From an uncultured Bacteroidota bacterium (lineage in GTDB: Bacteria; Bacteroidota; Bacteroidia; Chitinophagales; Chitinophagaceae), in the NCBI GenBank assembly GCA_902826165.1, contig CADEDV010000006.1:10270-74269 (forward strand): a DNA stretch of 64,000 bases, written 5' to 3'. The notes under the pieces were generated by a model. That model did not search any database, had not been told where the DNA came from, and worked only from the letters and a program-made list of their open reading frames with translations. Below are positions 23,921 through 36,294 of this stretch, piece by piece (within the stretch, counting starts at the first letter, position 1; every line of letters begins with the position of its first letter). A program made the translations under genes and the position numbers.

Positions 23921-24268
23921 TCACTTCTTTTTCCTCCTTGTCGCCCTGGCAATCTTGTTATACTCAAGGGCATGGTTGATCCAGTATTCCAGTTTTCTTT
24001 TGGTATTGAGTTCGTCAATATCTACAAAAACAAATCCTTTCATGACTTTCCCGGTAAAATCCATTGGTCTGCACCCTTTTTTTTTCATTACCTCATCAAA
24101 CTTAGCGGGATCAAGCCGCACCATCAATCGGTCCTTTTCAACACCCACACACATTTTTTCATTGACCATAAAACATAGACCACCAAACATTCGTTTCTCC
24201 TCCACATTTACTTGTGTCAGAGAAATCATCTCCCTTACCCGGTCAGCTAAATTCTCATTATAACTCAT
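23921..24268 (-). CDS. TfoX N-terminal-domain protein
   Basis: 115 aa. LADRVRE......V.EKRMFGGLCFMVN.KMC.GV resembles the TfoX_N domain. Confidence 0.65.
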   Translation of the reverse strand: MSYNENLADRVREMISLTQVNVEEKRMFGGLCFMVNEKMCVGVEKDRLMVRLDPAKFDEVMKKKGCRPMDFTGKVMKGFVFVDIDELNTKRKLEYWINHALEYNKIARATRRKKK

Positions 24269-24271
24269 CTT

Positions 24272-24775
24272 TCAGGAATTAAGTACTTGCTGAAGATTTT
24301 CATTTTTATTCCGCAGATCAATACCCCCTTCATATAATGATTTCATATTAGCCAGGTAAAAGGTCCAGCCTGTTTTGCAGCCTACATGCCATGTAAGTCT
24401 TCCGCTTTCATCATCCGGGATATTTTCCTGTGCCAATTCCACGATATTCTCTTCATTTTCTTTATAAATTCTGACAGAACAATTGCCGGCTTTTCCAAAA
24501 CTAAATTGAATAAAATCCTGCCCGTTGCAATCGAGAATAGTACCATACTCAGTTGTTTCATCAGGCCATCCATGCCAACGCCAGGTATAACTGTCTCCTT
24601 TAGCAACCCGCTCCTTATTTCCCCTTATGATACTATCTGGTGTTTTATACTCAGATAATCGCAGGAACCAATATTCCATCCCTGAACGGGTAGCCCATGC
24701 ATCATAGAGCTCTTTTCCTGCTGCATTGATATTGATGCGGATGATAAAACGGCTCCAATCTGTGGTAGTTGCCAT
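24272..24775 (-). CDS. SRPBCC-superfamily protein (AHSA1/START-like)
   Basis: 167 aa. Pattern I.I.A....LYDAW......YWF......G..Y.W.W resembles the activator-of-Hsp90-ATPase-homolog-like domain. Confidence 0.6.
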   Translation of the reverse strand: MATTTDWSRFIIRININAAGKELYDAWATRSGMEYWFLRLSEYKTPDSIIRGNKERVAKGDSYTWRWHGWPDETTEYGTILDCNGQDFIQFSFGKAGNCSVRIYKENEENIVELAQENIPDDESGRLTWHVGCKTGWTFYLANMKSLYEGGIDLRNKNENLQQVLNS

Positions 24776-24786
24776 AACGTTCCTTT

Positions 24787-25167
24787 TTATTGAGGAATAC
24801 TGTGCAGACCGATACGATTTCCTTCTGTGTCAATGATCACCGCCATATTTCCATACTCCGGGGATATCTCTGTTTTAGGCATCATGATCTTACCCCCGGC
24901 TGCTTCCACTTTATCAAGTATATTTTGCAGATCAGGGTTTCCGTTCAGGTAGATCAGCGGGCCATCTGTTGCGGAAGGCTTGTGAAAACCACCACTATCC
25001 ACCAATGCGCCGCCTACTCCCATCATATCATCTATTGGAAACATTCGCATTTTAATATCAGGCAGATCAAGGGGGTTAAGCTTTATGCCAAATATGGTTT
25101 CGTAAAAAGTAGTAGCCCTGTTAAGATCTGTTGTGCCGATCTCAAACCAGCTGATCGCATTTTTCAT
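24787..25167 (-). CDS. VOC/glyoxalase-family protein
   Basis: 126 aa. WFEIGTTDLNRATTFYETIFG and the C-terminal D.EGN.IGLHS are typical of vicinal-oxygen-chelate fold proteins. Confidence 0.75.
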   Translation of the reverse strand: MKNAISWFEIGTTDLNRATTFYETIFGIKLNPLDLPDIKMRMFPIDDMMGVGGALVDSGGFHKPSATDGPLIYLNGNPDLQNILDKVEAAGGKIMMPKTEISPEYGNMAVIIDTEGNRIGLHSIPQ

Positions 25168-25183
25168 ATTTCTTATTTTAAAT

Positions 25184-25699
25184 TTATAACGGAGTTTTTG
25201 TTTCTTTTAAACCCTTGCTTTGCAGGTATTCCAGTAATTCTCTCGCATCATCTCCTCCCCGCTGTGCATGATGCAGTAAGGTTAATCCATGGGGACCCCT
25301 TGCTGAAAGGTATTCCGGGAATAGCTCGAGGTAGGGTTTTACCACCTGTGTTTTACCCAACATCGTGAGCACAAACATGTTTGCCCTGGCTCCCAGCCTG
25401 ATCAGGTAGTTAGCAATCTCTTTATTCCCCACATGCCCTGCTCCTTCTACTGCAGTTTCAAAATCCCCGCCACCCAGGTCCCATGTTGCATATAGCAAAG
25501 TGGGGAATTCTGCCAACATGGATTTTACTTTCTCCAGGTTATTATGCCCGGCGCCTACAAATTCTTTTACTTTTTCAGCAGGGAGTGGGTCTGCCTTTGA
25601 CGCTATTGCCATTTGCTGTGCCGGCAACCAGCCAGGGACAGTAATGATACCAGCTGTACTTAAAGCAGCTTTTGTAAGAAAGTTTTTTCGGTTCATCAT
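25184..25699 (-). CDS. exported ankyrin-repeat protein
   Basis: 171 aa. N-terminal Tat-like/Sec signal (NRKNFLTKAALSTAGI) followed by ankyrin-type repeats (AVEGAGHVGNKEIANYLIRLGA, LTLLHHAQRGGDD). Confidence 0.6.
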   Translation of the reverse strand: MMNRKNFLTKAALSTAGIITVPGWLPAQQMAIASKADPLPAEKVKEFVGAGHNNLEKVKSMLAEFPTLLYATWDLGGGDFETAVEGAGHVGNKEIANYLIRLGARANMFVLTMLGKTQVVKPYLELFPEYLSARGPHGLTLLHHAQRGGDDARELLEYLQSKGLKETKTPL

Positions 25700-25765
25700 T
25701 TTTTCTTTTAAGTTCCGAAAAACTAAAGACAGATATCAACCGCCTGTCATATTAAGTAGACTATT

Positions 25766-26296
25766 TTACTGAGCCGCTGGCTTTTTCCGCCTGTACTCCA
25801 GGTCGTATTCAGTGACCCAACTCATTCCATTATCCTTTGATATTTCACCCAACTGCCTGACTTTATTCATATCAAGATCAAAAAAAGTTAGCCGGCGAAT
25901 AGCCAGTGTGTCCCTGGAAAAAGAAAAGGGTTTTGTTAGCAAAATGATCCTTTTGTTATCAAATTTTCCTTCCAGGTATTCAGTACTCCCGCCTGTATTA
26001 TCCACCCAGGTCTGTTGCCATTGTTTTGTAACGGCATTATAGGTATTAAAGCTCTTCCCGGCAAAACGCAGACCACGATTAACCGAGGCGCTGGTCCATT
26101 CTTCCAGTATGATACAGCTATCAAGCACCAGGCTTATTTTGCTATCGCCTGCTTTTTGCCCATTCTTTCCAAACGCCTCCCATTCACCTATCCAGAAATC
26201 AAACTGCCGGTAAACAGGGTTACTGCAGGGAAGCTGTTGCGCAGCCATCGTTTTTACAAGACAAAAGGCCACAATTAGGAGAATAAAATTTTTCAT
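25766..26296 (-). CDS. secreted hypothetical protein
   Basis: Signal peptide begins at MKNFILLIVAF (ATG 26296). The F.FWIGEWE motif suggests a DUF1579/lipocalin-like fold. Support is weak. Confidence 0.5.
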   Translation of the reverse strand: MKNFILLIVAFCLVKTMAAQQLPCSNPVYRQFDFWIGEWEAFGKNGQKAGDSKISLVLDSCIILEEWTSASVNRGLRFAGKSFNTYNAVTKQWQQTWVDNTGGSTEYLEGKFDNKRIILLTKPFSFSRDTLAIRRLTFFDLDMNKVRQLGEISKDNGMSWVTEYDLEYRRKKPAAQ

Positions 26297-26351
26297 ATTT
26301 TTTACATAAAGACCGCTACACAGTTGATTTTGCTGGTTCATTTATCCCTGA

Positions 26352-26786
26352 TTATCGCCATACACCAATAATAGCCCCCATAAGTGTTAATGCCACTAAC
26401 AGGTAACCACCATTAATAAATATATAGCTCGCTGACTTATGTTCAAATAAACCAACAATAGCGATACCACAAAATGGCCAGATACCAGAGAGAAAACCAG
26501 CAATAGCTCCCCAGGTAATATCGGTTTTTTGAGCACAGTTCCCTGTACATTCGGCTGGTGTATCTGCAAGATACATGGCCAGGTTAACTGCCATAAGTAA
26601 TGACAGTATAAAAGCGATGCCGTAGATTTTCGTGGCATTACCCTTTTTTACATCCTCTACCGTCATCCTGTTCTCACTCATCCAGGCATTACCAAATAAG
26701 GCAGGAGAATACCAAACGCCACCCAATACAAATGCAGAGATACCGGCTACTAATACAGCCAACCAGTTAATTGAAGACATGTCCAT
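26352..26786 (-). CDS. DUF1761-like membrane protein
   Basis: 144 aa with 4 TM helices. INWLAVLVAGISAFVLGGVWYSPALFGNAWM is typical of DUF1761. Confidence 0.6.
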   Translation of the reverse strand: MDMSSINWLAVLVAGISAFVLGGVWYSPALFGNAWMSENRMTVEDVKKGNATKIYGIAFILSLLMAVNLAMYLADTPAECTGNCAQKTDITWGAIAGFLSGIWPFCGIAIVGLFEHKSASYIFINGGYLLVALTLMGAIIGVWR

Positions 26787-26877
26787 AATAAGTGCTTTAG
26801 TTTATAACAGATGTTGTGATTCTAAACTAATTTCTAAACTTTACAGCACAAACGAAAGGCGAACCAAGCCGAAAAAA

Positions 26878-27948
26878 ATGCCGATAAAGGCCAGCAGTAT
26901 AGCGACAAAGCTTTTCAGCCAGCGGGAAAAGATAAATGATCTGGGTATCCGGGTCATCCTGGTTCCGTTCTTTGGTATAGCCATTCCACTGATTACCCGC
27001 ATGGTGCCGCATAACCAATTTACCAACTGGGAGATAAAATTTTCTTACCTCTACACTATCCTGATAGCGTTTGTGATTTATGAAGGGTCAAGGTTTTTAC
27101 ACTTCACACTGCGTACTTATTTTGACTGGTTTAATAAGCCGGTAAAAAAGATCGTCGCCCTTGTCATAACAATCCCCTTCTATTGTGTGCCTGTCAGTAT
27201 GCTGATGCTCGTGGGCTGGTACCATTTGTTCATGAATGGCATTGTTGACTGGAAAACTGTAAAACTCACTTCGTTGATTATTTTAATTGCTGTTTTCTTC
27301 CTGGTGAATCTTTATGAGACTGTCTTCCTCATCAGGGATTTAGCGAATGACCGGGTAACACAGGAACAACTGGAAAGAGCAAAAGCAGAAGCGGAGCTGG
27401 AGGCGCTTAAAAACCAGATCGACCCTCATTTTATTTTCAATTCGCTGAATACTCTCAGCCATTTGATTGATGATAAGCCTGAAAAGGCCCGGTTGTTTAA
27501 TGATAATCTTGCAGATGTCTATCGTTATATTCTACAAAACAAAGCCCGGGATTTAGTGCTACTCCGGGAAGAAGTCAATTTCCTGGAAAGTTATTTCCTT
27601 TTATTAAAGATTCGCTTTGAAAATGCTGTACAAATGCAAATAACAATACCTGAAGAAGCTATGGACCAATACCTGGTACCGCCCATTTCCCTGCAAATCC
27701 TGGCAGAAAATGCGATTAAGCACAATGAATTTTCAGAAGTTACTCCTTTGCTTTTTAAGGTCGAGATAAAAAATGAGGAGCTGATAATACATAACCCGGT
27801 ACGGAAAAAAACATTGCGGAGAGCTTCTTCCAAGATCGGGTTACAAAATCTGAAAGAAAGATATAAGCTGATCACCAACCAGGAAATTATTATTAAAGAA
27901 GAAGAAAATGACTTTACTGTAACATTACCTGTTTTAAAAATTACATAA
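26878..27948 (+). CDS. LytS/YehU-type sensor histidine kinase
   Basis: Membrane N-domain, then H-box LKNQIDPHFIFNSLNTL and N-box ENAIKHN (His_kinase/HATPase). The ORF-track start 26632 overlaps the opposite-strand gene, so the ATG at 26878 is preferred. Confidence 0.85.
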   Translation: MPIKASSIATKLFSQREKINDLGIRVILVPFFGIAIPLITRMVPHNQFTNWEIKFSYLYTILIAFVIYEGSRFLHFTLRTYFDWFNKPVKKIVALVITIPFYCVPVSMLMLVGWYHLFMNGIVDWKTVKLTSLIILIAVFFLVNLYETVFLIRDLANDRVTQEQLERAKAEAELEALKNQIDPHFIFNSLNTLSHLIDDKPEKARLFNDNLADVYRYILQNKARDLVLLREEVNFLESYFLLLKIRFENAVQMQITIPEEAMDQYLVPPISLQILAENAIKHNEFSEVTPLLFKVEIKNEELIIHNPVRKKTLRRASSKIGLQNLKERYKLITNQEIIIKEEENDFTVTLPVLKIT

Positions 27949-27949
27949 T

Positions 27950-28705
27950 ATGCGAGCTGTTATCATTGAAGATGAAAAACCTGCGGCTGAAAAATTAATC
28001 AAGGCCATACAAAAAACTCAATCAGCAATAGAGGTTGTAGCGGTATTAAATAGTATTAAAACATCTGTGGACTGGCTGCAAGAAAACCCAATGCCAGATC
28101 TTTTGTTTATGGACATAGAATTAAGTGATGGTCTTTCATTTAAAATATTTGAAAAAGTAAATATCAGCAGCCCGGTTATTTTCTGCACCGCTTTTGACGA
28201 ATACTGGCAGGAAGCCTTTGAACACAACAGTATTGATTACTTATTAAAGCCAGTAAAGCAGGATAAGCTGGAAACTGCCTTAAATAAATACGATAAATTA
28301 AAACAGCATTTTGCCTCCAGCTTTCAACACCTGATGCAATGGCAGCAGCAACCTGCCGGAACAGGCTACAAAAAAAGATTTCTGGTGAAAAGGGGCGTTG
28401 ATTATATAACAGTCAGAACAGAAGATATTGCTTATTTCTATGCCACTCACAAGCTGGTTTGTATGGTCGATAATAAAAACCAGAAATTTATTCTGGACCA
28501 ATCACTGGCAGATATTGAAAAACAATTGGATCCTTTACAATTTTACCGGGTCAACAGGAAATACCTGGTACAGCTTACCGCTATCAAAAAGATCAAAACC
28601 TATCCAAAGAGTAAACTACAACTGGAAATAGAGCCGGTTGTTAATGAAGAGGTGATCGTAAGCCAGGAAAATGTATCGGCTTTCAAAGAATGGATGGGTA
28701 GTTGA
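27950..28705 (+). CDS. LytTR-family response regulator
   Basis: Receiver domain (IIEDE, phospho-acceptor in LLFMDIELSD, LLKP) plus a C-terminal LytTR DNA-binding domain (FYRVNRKYLV). Confidence 0.9.
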   Translation: MRAVIIEDEKPAAEKLIKAIQKTQSAIEVVAVLNSIKTSVDWLQENPMPDLLFMDIELSDGLSFKIFEKVNISSPVIFCTAFDEYWQEAFEHNSIDYLLKPVKQDKLETALNKYDKLKQHFASSFQHLMQWQQQPAGTGYKKRFLVKRGVDYITVRTEDIAYFYATHKLVCMVDNKNQKFILDQSLADIEKQLDPLQFYRVNRKYLVQLTAIKKIKTYPKSKLQLEIEPVVNEEVIVSQENVSAFKEWMGS

Positions 28706-28845
28706 ACTATAAATGTGTTAATGATGCACACTTATATAAGTTCCACACGGGGAATTAGCCATATTTCAATCCGCTGAAAAGAATAATTCACCAACGAGCT
28801 TGTGTAATTTTTTTACCGGCATCATCTATAGGCAAATACTTGCTT

Positions 28846-31185
28846 ATGCAACAGCAAATGCTGCGCCTTGATCCCCGCTATTTTCAGGTTATTTTCCAGA
28901 TTATTTTTTTAAGCTATGGAATACTGATCCTTGGCTGGGAAGCTGATTGGCAACATATTAGTATCAGTATTGCCGGCTGCCTATTGTTTCAGTATGCAGC
29001 TGATTCGATAAAAGCAAAAAGACTGTTGAAGCCCCATGAATTTGACCGCTGGGGCTTCAGTGTTTTGATCAGTGCCATGAGTTTGTGTCTTTTACTGAAA
29101 ACAAACAGCTGGTCAGTCAGCCTGTTAGCAGCATTTTTAACTGTTGCATCTAAGTATGTTTTTCGCTGGAACCAAAAACATATTTTCAACCCATCAGCCT
29201 TTGGTATCGTGGCCTGTTTATTTTTTACCAATGATGCCTGGCTGAGCCCGGGACAATGGGGTAGTGATACCGTTATATTCTTTACTGTTATCACATTGGG
29301 AACGATCGTTGTAACAAGAGTGCAGAAGTTGGACATTTCTTTAGCTTTTCTTTTCACTTTCATAGGTCTTTTATACTGGAGACAGGTTTATGTACTTGGC
29401 TGGCCCATGGATCATTTTATACATTCTGTCAGTACAGGCAGTCTTTTATTGTTTACCTTTTTTATGATCAGCGACCCGAGAACATCACCCAATCATCCGC
29501 TGGCAAGAATACTCTGGGCAGTATTGATAGCTGTTGCTGCCTTTTACCTCGCTGCTTTTAAATGGAAGTATAATACTCCCATCTGGATATTGGTTGCAGC
29601 AGCTCCGCTGGTTCCTTTATTAGATAAAATTTTTAAATCGAAAAACTTTAGTTGGTCTCCTGCTGTGCTATCGTTCTCATTCATTTTAAAACTAAAACAT
29701 ATAGTCATGAAGCCAATTTTGAAAAAAGGAGCTGCGGTGATCATCCTCACCGCCATGATCGGGCACGAAGCCGCTGCATTCTGCGGCTTCTATGTCAGCA
29801 AAGCAGATGGAACGCTGAAGAACAAAACTTCACAGGTCATCCTGGTGCGGGACGGCAACCGGAACGTGATCACAATGTACAATGATTTTAAAGGCAACCT
29901 GAAAGATTTTGCCATGGTGGTGCCTGTGCCGGTGGTGCTACAGAAAAAAGATATTAAAGTGGTTGACCAGTCCATTTTTAATACTCTAAATGAATATAGT
30001 AAACCAAGGCTGGTTGAATATTATGACCAGAACCCATGTAACCGATATATGGAGGACAAATTAAGTGGAAGTGTGCCCGGCCTTCAGCTAAATGAGGTCG
30101 TCGTAACAGGTTATGGTACAGCCAAGCGAAAAGATCTGGGTGTAAGAGTCGAAGCTAAATACCTTGTTGGCGAATATGATATACTTATTCTTAGCGCTAA
30201 AGAAAGTTCTGGGTTAAAAACCTGGCTGGATGAAAATGGGTATAAAATCCCTGCTGGTGCTGATGAGGTACTGGAACCTTATATCAAAAGCAACCTGAAA
30301 TTTTTTGTGGTAAAAGTCAACGAGGAAGAAAAGAAAAAACTGCCCGGTAATTTTCTTCGCCCGTTACAGATCAGTTTTACATCCCCAAAGTTCATGTTAC
30401 CCATTCGCCTGGGTATGGCGAATGCAGATGGCGACCAGGATATGATCGTATATGCCTTTACTAAAAAAGGAAGAATAGAAGCAACCAACTACAGGACACT
30501 TTCATTACCCACTTCCAAGAATGTCCCCTTGTTTGTAAAAAATAACTTTGGAAATTTCTATGCTAACCTTTTCCAGCATCAATGGAGTAAAGAAGGAAAA
30601 GCATTAGCCATGCTGGAATACGCCTGGGATGTGAGTCCGAAGAATTATGTGAAGTGTGACCCCTGTGTGGCTACTGCACCTTCAACACAAGACCTTGTGC
30701 AAGCTGGTGTATGGTGGATCAACCGCGACTGGAATGATTACAGCGACGTGGATGATAACGAAGACCTTGATTATTCAGATAATGTTTATTTTACCCGCCT
30801 GCATGTACGTTACAACCGGGATAAGTTTCCGCAGGACCTGGTGTTCCAGGTTACACCCAATACAGAGAGCTACCAGGCGAGATATATTATCACACATCCC
30901 GCTACCGGCGACTTTAATTGTGATGCCGGTAAAAAATACCTGAAGGATTTGAAGCAACGCCGTTCCGATGAAATGGAAATGCTGGCTTATTTAACCGGTA
31001 ACACCTATAAAGACTGGGATGTGGTGCTGAATGAGGAAGAAGAAAAATTCATTCCCGCAGAGGCAGGATATGCATCAGTTGCTGAAACGATTACTGATCA
31101 GCCTAAAAGAAATAACACACTATTGTTTGCTACTATTGGTGTAATGGGCGTGGTGTCATTGATCGGGTTCAGGCAACGAAGCTGA
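28846..31185 (+). CDS. RnfD/NqrB-like membrane domain in frame with an exported DUF2330-like domain and a C-terminal TM anchor
   Basis: Residues about 1-285 are polytopic, with FNPSAFG and MISDPRTSP motifs (NQR2/RnfD/RnfE-like). An internal ATG at 29707 opens a signal-peptide-like segment (MKPILKKGAAVIILTAMIGHEAAAFCGFYVSK), followed by about 490 aa of soluble domain and a terminal TM helix with basic tail. No stop codon separates the two parts. Confidence 0.7.
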   Translation: MQQQMLRLDPRYFQVIFQIIFLSYGILILGWEADWQHISISIAGCLLFQYAADSIKAKRLLKPHEFDRWGFSVLISAMSLCLLLKTNSWSVSLLAAFLTVASKYVFRWNQKHIFNPSAFGIVACLFFTNDAWLSPGQWGSDTVIFFTVITLGTIVVTRVQKLDISLAFLFTFIGLLYWRQVYVLGWPMDHFIHSVSTGSLLLFTFFMISDPRTSPNHPLARILWAVLIAVAAFYLAAFKWKYNTPIWILVAAAPLVPLLDKIFKSKNFSWSPAVLSFSFILKLKHIVMKPILKKGAAVIILTAMIGHEAAAFCGFYVSKADGTLKNKTSQVILVRDGNRNVITMYNDFKGNLKDFAMVVPVPVVLQKKDIKVVDQSIFNTLNEYSKPRLVEYYDQNPCNRYMEDKLSGSVPGLQLNEVVVTGYGTAKRKDLGVRVEAKYLVGEYDILILSAKESSGLKTWLDENGYKIPAGADEVLEPYIKSNLKFFVVKVNEEEKKKLPGNFLRPLQISFTSPKFMLPIRLGMANADGDQDMIVYAFTKKGRIEATNYRTLSLPTSKNVPLFVKNNFGNFYANLFQHQWSKEGKALAMLEYAWDVSPKNYVKCDPCVATAPSTQDLVQAGVWWINRDWNDYSDVDDNEDLDYSDNVYFTRLHVRYNRDKFPQDLVFQVTPNTESYQARYIITHPATGDFNCDAGKKYLKDLKQRRSDEMEMLAYLTGNTYKDWDVVLNEEEEKFIPAEAGYASVAETITDQPKRNNTLLFATIGVMGVVSLIGFRQRS

Positions 31186-31224
31186 TAGCATAATGTTCAC
31201 TATGAAAGTTCATACACATAAAAA

Positions 31225-31250
31225 AGCCCCGGTTTCATAAAACCGGGGCT
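31225..31250. terminator. bidirectional hairpin terminator
   Basis: Stem agccccggtt/aaccggggct with loop tcataa, preceded by an A-run and lying between convergent genes. Confidence 0.75.
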
Positions 31251-31279
31251 TATAATTACCATTAGCCCTAAAACGTTTT

Positions 31280-31678
31280 TTAGTTACGGCCTCCGCCACC
31301 CGGGCCACGCCTTGGATTCATAGCTGGCTCAATATCATTTTTCCAGATGGTGAATTTATCATCCCCTAATAACACTTTTAATTCTTTATCCCTTCCATCT
31401 GTAATCGGCTGCATCCTATCACGCAATACCTGCATATCGGGGCGTTCGCCACCACTCATCAATTCTTGTCTTACTGCATCCTGCTTGCGGTAAAAACTTG
31501 CAAACACGGTATCTATCTGGGCCTGTTTGGCTGCATCTAAATGAAAGGCACTATCCAGCTTTTGGTGAACTATCGCCACTCTTTCTTCAACAGTACGGCG
31601 GAAACCACCACCCGGCTGTGCATTAACGCTGATGAATCCTGCCATTATAAATGCAAGGAACAGAACTTGTTTTTTCAT
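31280..31678 (-). CDS. periplasmic helical protein (Spy/CpxP- or DUF4890-like)
   Basis: 132 aa with a signal peptide, Gly-rich ends (QPGGGFRR, RRGPGGGGRN) and a helical core. It is the last gene of the ECF sigma operon. Confidence 0.5.
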   Translation of the reverse strand: MKKQVLFLAFIMAGFISVNAQPGGGFRRTVEERVAIVHQKLDSAFHLDAAKQAQIDTVFASFYRKQDAVRQELMSGGERPDMQVLRDRMQPITDGRDKELKVLLGDDKFTIWKNDIEPAMNPRRGPGGGGRN

Positions 31679-31722
31679 GTTGTTATTTGTGTTTTGTGTG
31701 ATTAAACGATGTGAAAGTTACT

Positions 31723-32238
31723 TTAGTTTTTTTTAGGCTCAGCCGCGGGTTCACCTCTTTTCATTTGCTTGCCCATTTTTTTGAACATCCTGAAAATAGC
31801 CGAATCATACTTTACAGCCTGCGCCTGGTCCTTGCATAACGCCCTGACATTTTTAAAATGATTGAATGTCTGCAAGTCCAGTGCTTTTTGTTTTTGTGCA
31901 ATTATATCGGCCACACTATTCACAACAGAGTCGCTGATCCCCGGGTTTGTCATCAACCGGAACAAGCTATCTTTTGCTTTCCGCATTTCATCGAACATGG
32001 GTTTTACTGTTTTCTCCTGCAAATCTTTCAGTTGTTTATATTGTACGATCTGCTCATCAGTAAACCCGGCTTCTTTCTGTAGCATATCTATCACCATACC
32101 GGCTCTTTTTTCCTGGGTGAAACGGTTTCGCTCAACTGGTTTCTTAAACCATAAGAAATAAGCCAGCACAGCAATATTCGTCAGCAATAAAACTACAATG
32201 ATGAAGACCAGGTTTTTATTTCGGGATGTAGTACTCAT
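31723..32238 (-). CDS. membrane-anchored Spy/CpxP-like periplasmic protein
   Basis: 171 aa with an N-terminal TM helix and repeated L..EQ/L..KQ-type helical segments. ATGA overlap with the upstream anti-sigma-like gene. Confidence 0.5.
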   Translation of the reverse strand: MSTTSRNKNLVFIIVVLLLTNIAVLAYFLWFKKPVERNRFTQEKRAGMVIDMLQKEAGFTDEQIVQYKQLKDLQEKTVKPMFDEMRKAKDSLFRLMTNPGISDSVVNSVADIIAQKQKALDLQTFNHFKNVRALCKDQAQAVKYDSAIFRMFKKMGKQMKRGEPAAEPKKN

Positions 32239-32585
32239 GGACGGTCGATGTTTTCATAATCAAAACTACTGTTAGTAGCCAGCACATATTCATTATCAGT
32301 TACCAGCTGTTCTGTTTGATCGGCTACAAAGCCTCCATTGGTGGTTGTTACATCCTGGCGCAACACCATAAAGGCATTAACCAGCAGGATAACAAAAAGG
32401 CCCGCAATAACAACAACCGGCCGGGAAATGAATGAACCCATGGTTTCCCATATCGTTTTTTCATTGCGTTGCAGCCGGCCTGTCAACCGGGTATAGAAGA
32501 ACGGTTGTGGTTCAGCCCGCTGAATGCCATCAAGGCTTTCAAGGGTTTCCTGTACTTTTTTGTCAATGTCGGGTCTCATTTTCAT
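32235..32585 (-). CDS. putative anti-sigma factor (single-pass membrane protein)
   Basis: 116 aa with a single central TM helix. Lies immediately downstream of the ECF sigma gene. The call is positional. Confidence 0.5.
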   Translation of the reverse strand: MKMRPDIDKKVQETLESLDGIQRAEPQPFFYTRLTGRLQRNEKTIWETMGSFISRPVVVIAGLFVILLVNAFMVLRQDVTTTNGGFVADQTEQLVTDNEYVLATNSSFDYENIDRP

Positions 32586-32626
32586 ATTCGTTTAGTTTGA
32601 CGTTGGCTGGTCTCTAAAACCTGTGC

Positions 32627-33199
32627 CTATTCTTTGTCTTTATAATAATCTTCCAGCTTCTTTTTCAGGTTGGTCTTGGCCCGGTGCATCAGCGATTCCA
32701 CCGAAGACACTGTAGTCTCCATTACCTCCGCAACTTCCTGATAACTAAGGCCATCTACCTTATGAAGAGTGAAGGCGACCCGCTGGTTTCCTGGCAGCTC
32801 TGCGATAGTTTTAAACAATGTAGCTGCTTTTTCCTTTTTATCCAATACCACCCCGGGATGATTAAAATCAGGTGGATTGACCACTACTTCGCTGTCTTCT
32901 CCAAAAAGGCTCCGGACAAACCCGAAACGCTTCTTGCGTTTCTTCCTCCGTTCATGGTCCAATGCCTTGGCAATAGTAATCCGGTACAACCAGGTAGAGA
33001 ACTTGGACTCCCCTTTAAAAGAACCAACCGACTGGTACACCTGTACAAAGGTTTCCTGCGCTATATCTTCCGCATCTTCGGCATTTTGTACAATACCCAA
33101 AGCTGTGTTGTAGACCATGTTTTGCCAGGTCTCAACAATAGTTTTAAAAGCGGATTCATCTCCCTGCTTCAGTTGTTCGACTAATATCCTTTCATCCAA
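32627..33199 (-). CDS. ECF-type RNA polymerase sigma-70 factor
   Basis: Region 2 (AEDIAQETFVQVY, FSTWLYRI) and region 4 (LPGNQRVAFTLHKVDGLSYQEVAEVMETTVSSVESLMHRAK). Confidence 0.9.
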   Translation of the reverse strand: MDERILVEQLKQGDESAFKTIVETWQNMVYNTALGIVQNAEDAEDIAQETFVQVYQSVGSFKGESKFSTWLYRITIAKALDHERRKKRKKRFGFVRSLFGEDSEVVVNPPDFNHPGVVLDKKEKAATLFKTIAELPGNQRVAFTLHKVDGLSYQEVAEVMETTVSSVESLMHRAKTNLKKKLEDYYKDKE

Positions 33200-33279
33200 G
33201 CGTTGCGTTTTTAGCAGGCAACGATATTACGCAAATTTTCTATTGAACAGGTTGGCTTTGGTAATAATATTGCTATTGA

Positions 33280-36132
33280 TTAAAACATGGGCATACGATC
33301 TCTTCTCTCCTGGTTATTGGAAGCTTTGGCTTTGCCAAAATTCTTTAAACTATAAGCGAAGGTCATCATGAAGTATTGTTTCAGCACCAGGTTCTGTACA
33401 TCCTGCACATATGAATCACCCACCGTTCTCGTGATACTCTGGTTTTGTTTTAACAGATCAAAGACAGTCAGTTTCAATTCACCTCTCCTGTCTTTCAGGA
33501 ATTTTTTTCCAACCCCCGCATTCCATAACCAGAAACTCTGGTTGAATCCCTCTGATAAACCACTGTAGGTTTGATTACTGATATCATTCTGCAGGAACCA
33601 GCCGGATTTCGATAACAGGTTTAACTGCACACCTGCCGATTGGGTTATATAATTCTGATTCAGCTGCGGTTGTACTGTATTTTTTACAGTATTAAAATTC
33701 GCATTGTATGATACATTGAAGTCGATCCGTTCGCTGATATTGCTCGCAATAACAATTCCGGTACTATAGGTGTAAGTGTTAGAAACAGTGCTTACATTAT
33801 TTACCAGGCCGGGTACTTTACTATAGGTAAATCCGGCATTCAGGTTCACATTTGATTTAATGAATTTAATGGGTTGGCCATAGGTAAAGAATGAACGGAA
33901 ACTCCAGTAACCGTCCAGGTTCACCGGTTTAGTGATCTGTGATCCTTTGTACAAGACAATACCGGGTGCCAGCAATGAATCTGTTGCGGCCGTATAGGTA
34001 GCATTAGCGACATAGTCATTAGCTCTTTGCACAAAGACATTGGCAAAAAGACTTTGCCCCTTTTGGGTGTTGGTATACGTGTAACGGCCTGATAATGTAT
34101 GTGTGTATTGCTGATCCAGTTCCGGGTTACCGGTACTCATTCGTAACTGGTTGCTATTATCGATCACATTCTGTAATTGATTGACCGATGGGGCATTGAC
34201 TGAACCCCGGTAGAATAAACGGATATTACTGCGGGCTGATAATTTCCTGCGAAACTGAATATTGGACAGCAGATTAGAAAAACTCCTGTCTACGGCTGCA
34301 ATCTCCGGGAATACCTGGTCACTTTTCAGGGATGAATTTTGATAACTGACACCTACGGAAAATTGATTATCCCTGTCACCAATCCGGTAAGTGATCCCTC
34401 CGTTCTGTGTATTATATGTATTATCAAACTTGTTGGAAAGAGTGGTATCAAAGATGGAATATTTACCGCCCACCTCATCAAACTGGTAGGTCACTTTATC
34501 CGCTTTATTCGTGGTAAATGATGGATTGAAGTTGAATTGTAACTGTCCTTTTTTACCAACCGGTTCCGTATAAACAATATTGGTGGAAATCGTCCGACCA
34601 CTGGTCTTGTTATCGGAATATTGCTGCAGCGAGTCGTTCACATTACCGCTGTTATAGTATTTATTAACTGACTCAACATAGGTTTCACCTGATCTTTCAT
34701 TAAAACTGGTATTCAGGTTCAGCGAGATCATTCTTCCTCTTTTAGCAAAGGCGTGGCGATATAAAATATTATTATTGAAATTATATCCTGAGTTCAATGT
34801 ATTTGTCCTGCTGTTTGATTCGCTTTGAAGACCCGTCAGCAGGTCATAGTAGCTGGCGCTGCTGATAACACTCCGGTTATCATTTTTCTGGAAACTGATA
34901 TTGGGTGTTATGATAATTGTATTCGATGAGTCGATCTTGTACTCCATCCGGAAATTGATCCGGTGATTATAATTACTGACTTTAGTAAGGGAAGTATCAT
35001 CCAGGAATAAAGTAGAGTCTGCTTTTACAAATGATTGTGTACCCGAGAACCTGTTATTATCGGTGTTGCTGTTATTAAAGAAATAGCTTCCGCTTACATC
35101 GATCTTTGAGCCCCATTTATCCGAATAGTTGATGCCTATTGCATTGGTTTTGCTGATACCGCTTTGCTGGCCCACCACGAAATTATCACTGCCGCCTCTA
35201 AAATTTCCACCACCACGGTTAGCACCTCCGCCCCTGTTACCACCACCACGATTACCGCCGCTGCTGCTGGTAAGGCCCAACAGATCCTGTGAGCCAAAAT
35301 TTTGCTGGTTAATATTGTTTGTCAGGCCGACTAAGGAAATACGGCGGTTGTTTTTAAAGAAGCTCATATTACCACCCGCCTGGTACCTGCTGTCTGTACC
35401 GATTCCGGCATATACCCGGCCAAACTGTCCATTACTTATACCTGATTTGGTAATAATATTAAGAGCCCGTTGCGAATTGCCATCATCCACCCCGGTGAGT
35501 TGTGCCTGATCACTCAACCTGTCAAACACCTGTATCTTATCCACTACTTCGGAGGGAAGATTTCTTAAAGCAGCCGAAGCATCATCCCCAAAAAAATCCC
35601 GGCCATCAATCGTCACTTTTCTTACCTGCTCGCCTTGTGCGGTCACTGTTCCGTCCCTGTCAACAGTGATACCCGGCATTTTCTTTACCAGGTCTTCCAC
35701 CGTTGCATCCGGGTTTACTTTGAACTGGCTTGCATTATATTGTGTAGTATCTCCTTTTTGTTGTGCGGGCGGCACTTTTGATATCACAGTTACACCTCCA
35801 ATCTCCCTGGTTGACTTGGGAACAAATAAAGAACCGAGATCAACATTAGGAATTGAATCGGTAACATCGGCGAATTGTTTGAAATTCTCATAGCCGATAA
35901 AACTTATTTGTAAAGTATAAGAACCTACAGATACGTTACTAAAAAGGAAATCGCCTTTACTGTCTGAAATCACATTATAGCGGTTCATTGAATCTTTGAC
36001 AGACCGCAACTGAAGCGTGGCTCCGGCCAGTGGCTTATTATCAATGAGGTCCAGCAATTTTCCTTTAATACTTTGAGCCTGAACTATTACCGTGAATACT
36101 ATCAGCACCAACAGGAACAGAATTTTCCGCAT
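33280..36132 (-). CDS. outer-membrane beta-barrel protein (TonB-dependent-receptor-like, CarboxypepD_reg N-domain)
   Basis: Signal peptide from MRKILFLLVL (ATG 36132). Has a CarboxypepD_reg-like domain (IKGKLLD...LAGATLQL), a plug-like segment (DLVKKMPGITVDRDGTVTAQGE) and a long alternating beta-strand region ending in an aromatic residue (MF). Confidence 0.8.
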   Translation of the reverse strand: MRKILFLLVLIVFTVIVQAQSIKGKLLDLIDNKPLAGATLQLRSVKDSMNRYNVISDSKGDFLFSNVSVGSYTLQISFIGYENFKQFADVTDSIPNVDLGSLFVPKSTREIGGVTVISKVPPAQQKGDTTQYNASQFKVNPDATVEDLVKKMPGITVDRDGTVTAQGEQVRKVTIDGRDFFGDDASAALRNLPSEVVDKIQVFDRLSDQAQLTGVDDGNSQRALNIITKSGISNGQFGRVYAGIGTDSRYQAGGNMSFFKNNRRISLVGLTNNINQQNFGSQDLLGLTSSSGGNRGGGNRGGGANRGGGNFRGGSDNFVVGQQSGISKTNAIGINYSDKWGSKIDVSGSYFFNNSNTDNNRFSGTQSFVKADSTLFLDDTSLTKVSNYNHRINFRMEYKIDSSNTIIITPNISFQKNDNRSVISSASYYDLLTGLQSESNSRTNTLNSGYNFNNNILYRHAFAKRGRMISLNLNTSFNERSGETYVESVNKYYNSGNVNDSLQQYSDNKTSGRTISTNIVYTEPVGKKGQLQFNFNPSFTTNKADKVTYQFDEVGGKYSIFDTTLSNKFDNTYNTQNGGITYRIGDRDNQFSVGVSYQNSSLKSDQVFPEIAAVDRSFSNLLSNIQFRRKLSARSNIRLFYRGSVNAPSVNQLQNVIDNSNQLRMSTGNPELDQQYTHTLSGRYTYTNTQKGQSLFANVFVQRANDYVANATYTAATDSLLAPGIVLYKGSQITKPVNLDGYWSFRSFFTYGQPIKFIKSNVNLNAGFTYSKVPGLVNNVSTVSNTYTYSTGIVIASNISERIDFNVSYNANFNTVKNTVQPQLNQNYITQSAGVQLNLLSKSGWFLQNDISNQTYSGLSEGFNQSFWLWNAGVGKKFLKDRRGELKLTVFDLLKQNQSITRTVGDSYVQDVQNLVLKQYFMMTFAYSLKNFGKAKASNNQERRDRMPMF

Positions 36133-36294
36133 AAGATTTATAATTACAGTTATTGGACGTCTATAAACAGGCAAACCTTCGTAACCACCACAGTTGACGG
36201 GAATAACGGCATTTTAGCGAGAAGGTTTACTATAATATCCTCATTTCCCGGAACTAAAGTATCTTGCAGCTCCTTAATAATTATTTAAACGTAT

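Follow-up and report, generated by a model that had tools for sequence, protein, structure and literature searches.

RnfD of Rnf and NqrB of Na+-NQR have a common fold and sit with the other subunits of their complexes (ABCGE of Rnf and ACDEF of Nqr). Nqr/Rnf-like two-subunit systems are also described apart from these full operons; in these, a membrane subunit with an NqrF-like NAD-binding domain (PF00175) is paired with a flavinylated NqrC/RnfG-like FMN_bind partner in ApbE-linked clusters (Meheust et al., 2021, PMC8238504; Huang et al., bioRxiv 10.1101/2024.03.13.584918). Here we analyse a stretch of 64,000 nucleotides (the window) from contig CADEDV010000006.1 of an uncultured Chitinophagaceae bacterium (assembly GCA_902826165.1), in which a single open reading frame (ORF) of 779 codons joins an RnfD-like membrane domain in frame to a predicted extracytoplasmic domain of the family DUF2330. 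The resulting two-part module shares with the two-subunit systems an NqrB/RnfD-like subunit without the flavinylated Thr and a membrane-anchored extracytoplasmic partner, whereas the PF00175 domain, the FMN_bind partner and the ApbE link are all three absent from it; it is a distinct variant of the RnfD/NqrB-derived two-part systems. With RnfD and NqrB themselves, its membrane domain shares the fold and the K-H-x-F-N-P and F-F-M-x-(S/T)-D-P-x-T-x-P motifs; it differs in being ~75 residues shorter at the flavinylated-Thr loop and in having no SGAT motif, and its obligate partner is DUF2330 instead of the other Rnf or Nqr subunits. DUF2330 is unmentioned in the 2021 survey of Nqr/Rnf-like systems (PMC8238504). 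A full-text literature search for ‘DUF2330’ likewise returned no paper mentioning the family.

A comparable order of parts is found in the fbcH gene of Bradyrhizobium japonicum, whose cytochrome b/c1 polyprotein has been shown experimentally to be cut at an internal signal peptide. There, too, one ORF encodes a polytopic membrane protein that is followed, behind an internal Sec-type signal peptide, by a protein exported and anchored at its C terminus, and the products come from separate genes elsewhere, as do those of the window pair. Cleavage is experimental for fbcH, whereas we infer it for the window protein; unlike fbcH, the window family also appears to keep an internal ribosome-binding site and to flip between fused and split forms. 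The window gene is an ordinary member of a catalogued, uncharacterised architecture: its C-terminal half is a full-length, high-scoring member of PF10092, a family labelled ‘DUF2330 domain-containing protein’ by NCBI and UniRef, and the PF03116+PF10092 combination is already precomputed for thousands of database proteins. What is new here is the analysis of the junction, with its retained start, its signal peptide and its recurrent toggling.

The in-frame junction is intact and conserved

Pfam assigned two domains to the 779-residue protein and no others at E<=1. The N-terminal match is to NQR2_RnfD_RnfE (PF03116; E=7.6e-13, 48.9 bits against a cut-off of 27.7); it is assigned to residues 1-287, with a best stretch confined to profile positions 172-295 of 296. 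The C-terminal match is to DUF2330 (PF10092; E=2e-68, 231 bits against a cut-off of 24.7) and runs over residues 309-667 and profile positions 3-278 of 279. Family hidden Markov models (HMMs) built in this analysis score 397 bits on the RnfD-like half and 785 bits on the DUF2330 half, and this is the only copy of each domain in the window. The start at ATG 28846 is favored by homologues of exactly 779 amino acids with 100% coverage. An earlier note made from the letters alone had described an RnfD/NqrB-like half joined to a DUF2330-like half; both assignments are borne out, the first by PF03116 and an RnfD fold (see below) and the second by the full-length PF10092 match. The landmarks on which that description drew are all present in the translation: HIFNPSAFG and SDPRTSP; Met288 (ATG 29707) followed by the signal-like KPILKKGAAVIILTAMIGHEAAA and FCGFYVSK; VVPVPVV at residues 358-364; and a C-terminal transmembrane helix (residues 757-775) with an RQRS tail, all in a single ORF with no stop between the two halves. 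The in-frame fusion is thus confirmed as an observation, and our confidence in this genetic architecture is high.

The junction looks exactly like two genes minus the stop codon between them, and this appearance, beyond mere prior possibility, is all that would favor a sequencing or assembly error, or a recent and inconsequential stop loss in a dying locus. Contigs from the Logan collection that span positions 29400-30000, drawn from four independent metagenome studies (wastewater, sludge and plant-associated), contain no indels and no stop-making substitution, so that neither the stop nor the frameshift that the earlier note had named as a refuting result was seen. More than 100 independently assembled homologues with 79-97% identity share the same uninterrupted ORF, and fused homologues number thousands across several phyla. 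Decay of the locus is likewise contradicted by the strong conservation of both halves, with many invariant columns in an alignment of 98 fusions from several phyla at a mean identity of 45%. The independent contigs, the fused homologues and the conservation together refute the reading as artefact or pseudo-fusion, to which we attach a negligible probability. The ORF is a conserved, in-frame gene fusion, neither an error nor unusual.

The joint retains the start region and signal peptide of a second gene

In the translation, the signal-like segment after Met288 reads MKPILKKGAAVIILTAMIGHEAAA and is followed by FCGFYVSK. Residues 288-311 can be divided into MKPILKK, GAAVIILTAMIG and HEAAA, directly before the F of FCGFY, with small residues at positions -3 and -1; this fits the pattern of a Sec signal peptide, namely a basic n-region, an h-region of ~7-15 residues and small uncharged residues at -1 and -3. 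Stand-alone DUF2330 genes open with a typical Sec signal peptide that ends in ALA, ASA or AFA directly before FCGFY, and the fusions keep this whole segment. A Met positioned 15-38 residues ahead of FCGF is found in 110/119 fusions from outside the Bacteroidota, compared with 18/119 in a control window, and in all 120 of a Chitinophagaceae set, compared with 3/120 in the control. Small residues at -1 and -3 are found in 118/119 and 120/120 of these two sets (238/239 overall). The hydrophobic core of the fusions has a median of 13 uncharged residues by a rough heuristic, and is no longer than that of the stand-alone signal peptides; at ~12-13 residues it is short for a permanent transmembrane helix.

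The nucleotides before the internal ATG are also distinctive. All seven non-Bacteroidota fused genes that were fetched have a Shine-Dalgarno (SD)-like motif 4-10 nt before the internal ATG; under a strict definition the motif is present at six of these seven internal ATGs and at none of ~98 other in-frame ATGs. Examples are ccaAAGGAGgttctcATG in N. moscoviensis, and AAAGGAG and AAAGGAGG in two other fused genes. Among metagenome loci, SD and ATG occur together in about 19/23 non-Bacteroidota fusions, against 22/580 (3.8%) of other in-frame ATGs. Bacteroidota are not known to rely on Shine-Dalgarno sequences. Directly ahead of ATG 29707 in the window, a 30-nt stretch has 80% A+T, at the 99th percentile of the gene’s 30-nt windows. 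By these comparisons, the joint keeps the full start apparatus of the second gene, in the form of an A/T-rich leader in Bacteroidota and of a Shine-Dalgarno sequence in other phyla.

Fused and split forms of one module

The best 120 full-length relatives of the window protein (79-97% identity, 775-790 amino acids, Chitinophagaceae-type) all carry both Pfam domains. Among the 4,784 clusters (50% identity) that the DUF2330 half matched in a representative library, several divergent ones (41-54% identity) are likewise fused, and a profile of these divergent fusions retrieved 7,980 further proteins. By their source names, the fusions so retrieved include those of Nitrospira moscoviensis and other Nitrospirota, of Thermoanaerobaculia and Vicinamibacterales (Acidobacteriota), and of Thermodesulfobacteriota. 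The fused architecture is therefore found in Bacteroidota, Nitrospirota, Acidobacteriota and Thermodesulfobacteriota, in thousands of database proteins, and the module is carried by bacteria of several phyla from soil, freshwater and wastewater, among them nitrifiers (for example Nitrospira). One relative (L007, CALSAT010000012.1) comes from a record titled as a ‘Bacteroides fragilis’ metagenome-assembled genome; its fused gene is 82% identical to that of the window and nests in the Chitinophagaceae clade, and the bin is probably mislabelled or contaminated.

When the N-terminal half alone was used as the query, many stand-alone proteins of ~281-297 amino acids were recovered, and in the three stand-alone RnfD-like genes examined the next gene encodes DUF2330, overlapping or starting within 15 nt. 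Across 80 organism-labelled species genomes, all Bacteroidota, an RnfD-like ORF lies directly upstream of the DUF2330 sequence on the same strand in 77 of the 78 informative loci (59 split, 18 fused). The remaining locus (L071:4001-5242) has a DUF2330 gene with no RnfD-like ORF within 4 kb upstream; this gene could be a second paralogue or part of a rearranged locus. Among 80 metagenome loci collected with the non-Bacteroidota profile, 37 are fused, 40 are split and 2 lie at contig ends. The comparison with orthologous loci that the earlier note had proposed thus answers that an adjacent gene pair is the commoner arrangement and that the fused form is also widespread; the two parts are essentially obligate partners. 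For all the size of its family (4,784 clusters), DUF2330 nearly always occurs with a flavin-less, RnfD-like membrane partner, and the fused form is a natural “Rosetta stone” from which the cooperation of the two proteins can be read. By this pattern the pair appears to be a self-contained, widespread envelope module, whose fused and split forms should be treated in annotation as one orthologous unit.

How the two forms are related can be read from the split loci. In a syntenic Terrimonas locus (L002), the TAA of the first gene is in frame with the second gene, giving ...TILQ-stop-NKHLFMKRKMKK, where the window reads ...FILKLKHIVMKPILKK. The second ATG overlaps the first stop or lies <=30 nt from it in 76/97 split loci; 39/97 have the two genes in the same frame, and 31 of those 39 are separated by a single stop codon. 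The genes shared between the Terrimonas locus and the window lie upstream of the fused gene, at 23921-26786 on the minus strand (TfoX_N-like, AHSA1-like, glyoxalase, DUF1579 and DUF1761 genes), and correspond to L002:464-5645. This synteny, together with the split module of Terrimonas and the position of its His_kinase/LytTR genes on the other side, indicates that rearrangement and stop loss happened within the family. In a maximum-likelihood tree of the DUF2330 domain with 97 rows, in which 15 stand-alone representatives of other lineages were labelled ‘split’ without a neighbor check, the fused/split label requires at least 12 changes, at least 7 of which are forced by well-supported branches. 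The Bacteroidota clade alone accounts for about six independent changes, and the window falls in a small all-fused clade (7 rows) with split relatives nearby. These data indicate that two translationally coupled genes became fused when the stop codon between them was lost, and that the fused/split state has, on this tree, flipped many times in evolution.

Each of the three alternatives offered in the earlier note (a genuine fusion, loss of the stop from a pair of genes, and a nested internal start) proves partly true. Conserved full-length homologues with the same architecture speak for the first; the in-frame stop of the Terrimonas locus, and the 31 split loci that differ from fused genes by just one stop codon, speak for the second; and the internal start site and signal peptide kept at the joint speak for the third.

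One polypeptide or two

We propose that the full-length product would insert into the membrane with its linker in the cytoplasm, as expected from the positive-inside rule since the linker is basic (K264, K266, K283, K285, K289, K293 and K294). The internal signal peptide would then run from inside to outside, export DUF2330 and expose AAA-FCGFY to signal peptidase I, which would cut after Ala311. Where the Met is kept, DUF2330 would probably be made separately from Met288 as well. By either route, cleavage or internal initiation, the mature products would be the two polypeptides that the split genes make, so that gain or loss of the stop codon would be nearly neutral, and the frequent toggling would be explained. 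Judged from the sequences, it is probable that signal peptidase cleaves the fusion, that translation also begins at the internal start, or both, and a fused two-gene envelope module that is processed or dually translated is the best explanation of the locus as a whole; we hold both views with somewhat better than even confidence. If two proteins are indeed made, the family would offer a clear case, in bacteria, of a polyprotein divided at an internal signal peptide while an internal ribosome-binding site is kept alongside, and the frequent fusion and fission at this locus would be accounted for.

The rival to this proposal is a stable, uncleaved fusion, in which the signal-like segment is now a permanent transmembrane linker, DUF2330 is held in the periplasm by helices at both ends, and the Met, the SD sequence and the AxA are relics or are kept for other reasons. 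Whole clades are fused, such as the 7-row clade around the window, interacting partners commonly fuse in evolution, and AlphaFold2 (AF2) models the segment as a helix that follows the membrane domain. In addition, at least five Bacteroidota fusions (L017, L018, L019, L033 and L060) lack the n-region Met and keep the core and the A-x-A, from which it follows that a covalent precursor is viable and that internal initiation is not universal. These Met-less fusions are one of several observations that count against two products. The Ala at -1 is at least 90% conserved, above what is usual for signal peptides, and may therefore belong to AFCGFY for structural reasons and not for cleavage; AF2 confidence is low at the junction and at FCGFY (the full-length model has a mean predicted local distance difference test score (pLDDT) of 79.5 and a predicted template modelling score (pTM) of 0.80, and is good except there and at residues 401-431). 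The only RNA runs, which derive from soil-dwelling relatives, contain 7% of the sequence words. Set against a permanent linker are the hydrophobic core, which is short for a stable transmembrane helix and no longer than the split signal peptides, the small -1 and -3 residues kept in 238/239 fusions, the SD and ATG found in about 80% of non-Bacteroidota fusions over a background of 3.8%, and the frequent return to the split state, which argues that a covalent link is unneeded. On balance we regard the uncleaved fusion as the less likely outcome, with a minor though substantial share of the probability, and favor processing or dual translation.

The N-terminal domain is a trimmed relative of RnfD

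In Foldseek searches with the AF2 model of the N-terminal domain, the RnfD chains 8rbq_D (E 3.4e-7, template modelling (TM) score 0.66), 7zc6_D (TM score 0.64) and 9eri_D (TM score 0.61) were matched, the TM scores being relative to RnfD; NqrB chains (e.g. 7xk3_B) gave TM scores of ~0.43, and urea and ammonium channels were weaker still. The NCBIfam models for the two subunits score far under their cut-offs (rnfD TIGR01946, 21.2 versus 207 bits; nqrB NF003756, 14.2 versus 414 bits). The HMM alignments jump from position 214 of the nqrB profile to position 208 onward of the rnfD profile, and only residues 136-149 (~14 residues) remain where NqrB and RnfD carry the ~75-residue loop for flavin mononucleotide (FMN), with an invariant WxSPGQWG there instead. 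The flavinylation motif [ST]G[AS][ST] is absent anywhere in the 779-residue protein; the flavinylation-type Thr/Ser whose conservation the earlier note had thought worth checking is thus missing together with its loop. None of the window neighbors, nor those of ~170 related loci, is an rnf, nqr or apbE gene. Because of the low NCBIfam scores, the missing motif and loop, and the lack of such neighbors, the N-terminal domain is not an RnfD or NqrB orthologue despite the shared fold, and the labels “RnfD subunit” and “NqrB” are misleading on the RnfD-like genes of this module.

Several stand-alone short RnfD-like homologues (P0154, P0181, P0183, P0186 and P0187) carry the JGI name ‘enediyne biosynthesis protein E5’. 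These names alone hint that the membrane protein of enediyne polyketide synthase cassettes belongs to the same trimmed RnfD-like group; a literature search on an enediyne link of the RnfD-like membrane protein found no paper.

The DUF2330 domain

Modelled alone with AF2, the DUF2330 domain reaches a pLDDT of 83.7 and a pTM of 0.83. The hallmarks of the family (AxA directly before FCGFY, DFAxVVPVP, APRLVEY..PC, FMLPIRLG, CDPC and TRLHxRY) are all present in the window protein and are invariant or nearly so in four alignments (A1, A2, A4 and A5), which contain several enzyme-like invariant blocks besides FCGF, C398, CDPC and C692. Hypervariability within the domain is confined to the disordered loop of residues 401-431 (mature residues 91-120). 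A DUF2330 profile run against all PDB sequences gave nothing relevant that would link the family to a solved structure.

The C-terminal end differs across the family, being a transmembrane helix, a MYXO-CTERM-like tail or a WWxKLW amphipathic end, and the membrane tether is for this reason interchangeable. Long high-GC DUF2330 proteins with extra C-terminal regions also occur (P0318, P0333, P0349, P0380 and P0384); some of these end in a Cys-containing tail, a transmembrane helix and a basic stretch, like MYXO-CTERM signals. Three proteins (P0241, P0242 and P0246) have two tandem DUF2330 domains, each behind its own signal-like helix and AFCGFY, which indicates that in-frame fusions of DUF2330 paralogues occur too, with their internal signal peptides kept. 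A further protein of 931 amino acids (P0398) combines PF08734 (GYD) with DUF2330, a different fusion partner for this domain, and a non-Bacteroidota contig (L088:3001-6811) has, behind the fused gene, another DUF2330 paralogue that stands alone (448 amino acids). The features of the window gene and its flanks are collected in Table 1.

Table 1. Features of the fused gene and its flanks (positions in the window; residues of the 779-residue protein).
Feature	Position	Strand	Description	Basis
Conserved TGTGTAATTTTTTT box	28801..28814	+	~45 nt upstream of the start; conserved in the window, L005, L011, L020, L023, L039 and L048	
Whole fused ORF	28846..31185	+	779 codons plus stop; alternative TTG start at 28840 (781 aa)	ORF listing, Pfam, homologues
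RnfD/NqrB-fold polytopic membrane domain	28846..29706	+	Residues 1-287; trimmed, without covalent-FMN loop	PF03116, Foldseek, family HMM
KHIFNPSAFG motif	29179..29205	+	HIFNPSAFG = residues 112-120; K/H/N/P invariant	98 fusions from several phyla
WLSPGQWG loop	29239..29262	+	Residues 132-139; W132, W138 and G139 invariant; site of the ~75-residue flavinylated-Thr loop in RnfD/NqrB	Alignment of the 98 fusions
SDPRTSP motif	29470..29490	+	Residues 209-215; D210, P211 and P215 invariant; counterpart of the RnfD F-x-x-TDP-x-TSP block	Alignment of the 98 fusions
A/T-rich patch before internal ATG	29677..29706	+	80% A+T; encodes basic, predicted cytoplasmic linker ...FILKLKHIV	
Start site and Sec-type signal peptide kept from the former second gene	29707..29778	+	Met288, n-region KPILKK, h-region of ~12 residues, c-region HEAAA	
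Invariant FCGFY, predicted mature DUF2330 N-terminus	29779..29793	+	Residues 312-316	Alignments
Extracytoplasmic DUF2330 body	29779..31113	+	Invariant Cys313, Cys398, Cys604/Cys607 (CDPC) and Cys692	PF10092, alignments, AF2
Variable, disordered loop after Cys398	30046..30138	+	Residues 401-431; pLDDT <50 in both models, no alignment consensus	
Invariant CDPC motif	30655..30666	+	Residues 604-607	Alignments
C-terminal transmembrane anchor and basic RQRS tail	31114..31182	+	Residues 757-775	
12-bp GC-rich hairpin	31224..31251	.	Between convergent genes, 3' of the fused gene	

What the module may do

Our confidence in any specific biochemistry of the module is low. By analogy, the RnfD-derived subunit may serve as a membrane dock or conduit for a tethered DUF2330 that carries out periplasmic cysteine chemistry, either thiol or redox transfer by way of a flavin or quinone bound non-covalently, or a covalent reaction of the P35-like kind that would use the N-terminal Cys and the variable loop. 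This is a guess, and the narrowness of its basis, namely invariant cysteines, a weak fold resemblance (TM scores of 0.24-0.37) and analogy, counts against it. If the module worked as a small Nqr/Rnf-like extracytoplasmic electron-transfer system, the cysteines of DUF2330 (CDPC and FCGFY) would receive electrons from the RnfD-like domain, which would bind a flavin or quinone non-covalently and carry the electrons across the membrane or along it, a scheme that would fit one polypeptide or two. The RnfD/NqrB fold of the N-terminal domain and the invariant CxxC and three other invariant Cys of DUF2330 are in agreement with this, and described Nqr/Rnf-like complexes also pair an NqrB/RnfD-like subunit lacking the flavinylated Thr with an extracytoplasmic partner (bioRxiv 10.1101/2024.03.13.584918; PMC8238504). 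However, a cytoplasmic donor domain is absent, with no NqrF-like PF00175 match; the partner has neither an FMN_bind domain nor a flavinylation motif; ApbE, rnf and nqr genes are missing across the ~170 loci examined; the membrane domain has no invariant Cys; and the five Cys of DUF2330 may be mere structural disulfides. We therefore consider electron transfer doubtful, at perhaps the level of one chance among several.

The covalent option derives from fold searches with DUF2330, in which P35 and P49 were the top family and the only one matched in each of two independent databases: 1p35, 1i4e and 1i3s in the PDB (E 1e-3 to 5e-3, probability 0.94-1.0), and entomopoxvirus P35, P49 and granulovirus P35 in BFVD (E 1.5e-4 to 2e-2). 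In baculovirus P35, once the exposed reactive-site loop with D87 has been cut, Cys2 traps the caspase thioester (PMC7863939). On this model DUF2330 would be a suicide substrate or covalent trap at the inner membrane, in which a protease or other enzyme cuts the hypervariable loop and the FCGFY Cys captures the acyl-enzyme, with the RnfD-like subunit only a membrane dock. Like P35/P49, DUF2330 has a Cys as the second residue of its predicted mature chain and exposes one flexible loop, the single disordered hypervariable stretch, which lies roughly where the reactive-site loop of P35 sits. The superpositions nevertheless have TM scores of 0.24-0.37, under the usual same-fold threshold, with a root-mean-square deviation of 9-15 Å; no P35 Pfam family matches at E<=1, nor did the search of PDB sequences with the DUF2330 profile return anything relevant. 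Whereas the P35 Cys becomes the true N-terminal residue, that of DUF2330 has a Phe ahead of it, and the ~300-residue P35/P49 proteins contrast with a DUF2330 of ~445 residues that is exported and membrane-tethered, has four further invariant Cys and has an RnfD-like partner, for whose obligate presence a trap would give no reason. A PBP1C neighbor, the classic partner of bacterial alpha-2-macroglobulin, was found once only (L088). The structural resemblance between DUF2330 and P35 is weak, the parallels are suggestive and homology is not established; we judge the trap improbable. An equally long shot is the combined picture of an undescribed inner-membrane machine, in which a flavin-loop-less RnfD-derived dock would hold a tethered periplasmic protein, a cellular relative of the otherwise virus-only P35/P49 fold, acting by its FCGFY Cys and loop as a covalent trap or acyl-transfer device, and the fused gene would be a ‘one ORF, two proteins’ precursor resolved by internal signal-peptidase and ribosome-binding sites.

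Genomic neighborhood and transcription unit

The fused gene follows genes for a PF06580 His_kinase (26872-27948) and a Response_reg+LytTR regulator (27950-28705). The earlier note had placed the locus immediately downstream of a LytS/LytTR pair and had proposed a test of its control by this regulator; the adjacency in the window stands, whereas the pair is not a conserved neighbor, a LytTR regulator being present in 6/84 and 3/87 loci in two surveys. With these low counts, and with the pair on the other side and strand in Terrimonas, it was rejected as a functional partner. Beyond family-level synteny, no other conserved neighbors emerged from the surveys of 84 and 87 loci, and in three other phyla the fused gene stands alone among unrelated genes. 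The penicillin-binding PBP1C-type gene of L088 (Transgly+Transpeptidase+BiPBP_C), which precedes the fused gene there, was considered as a partner by analogy with alpha-2-macroglobulin and set aside, as it did not recur in 87 diverse loci.

On the 3' side of the window gene, a convergent cluster occupies 31280-36174 on the minus strand and encodes a Spy-like protein, a PF13801 Metal_resist/LTXXQ-like protein, a small anti-sigma-like membrane protein, an extracytoplasmic function (ECF) sigma factor and a CarboxypepD_reg+OMP_b-brl_3 barrel. Such an ECF sigma/Spy-like cluster adjoins the module in about 22-24 Chitinophagaceae-type loci, split and fused alike, and a trio of LTXXQ, small protein and ECF sigma genes also follows the fused gene in the distant L088. 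No promoter motif common to the sigma operon and the RnfD-like gene was found, and the adjacency is not clearly above chance in ECF-rich phyla; the cluster was set aside as a regulator.

The box upstream of the fused gene has the consensus TGTGTAAT(T)TTTT and is found ~45 nt before the start with or without an upstream LytTR gene; it is probably a promoter element of the Bacteroidota sigma-A -7 type. The hairpin between the convergent genes is probably a bidirectional terminator that closes the transcription unit. Together, the upstream box and the strong 3' hairpin suggest that the fused gene forms a transcription unit of its own.

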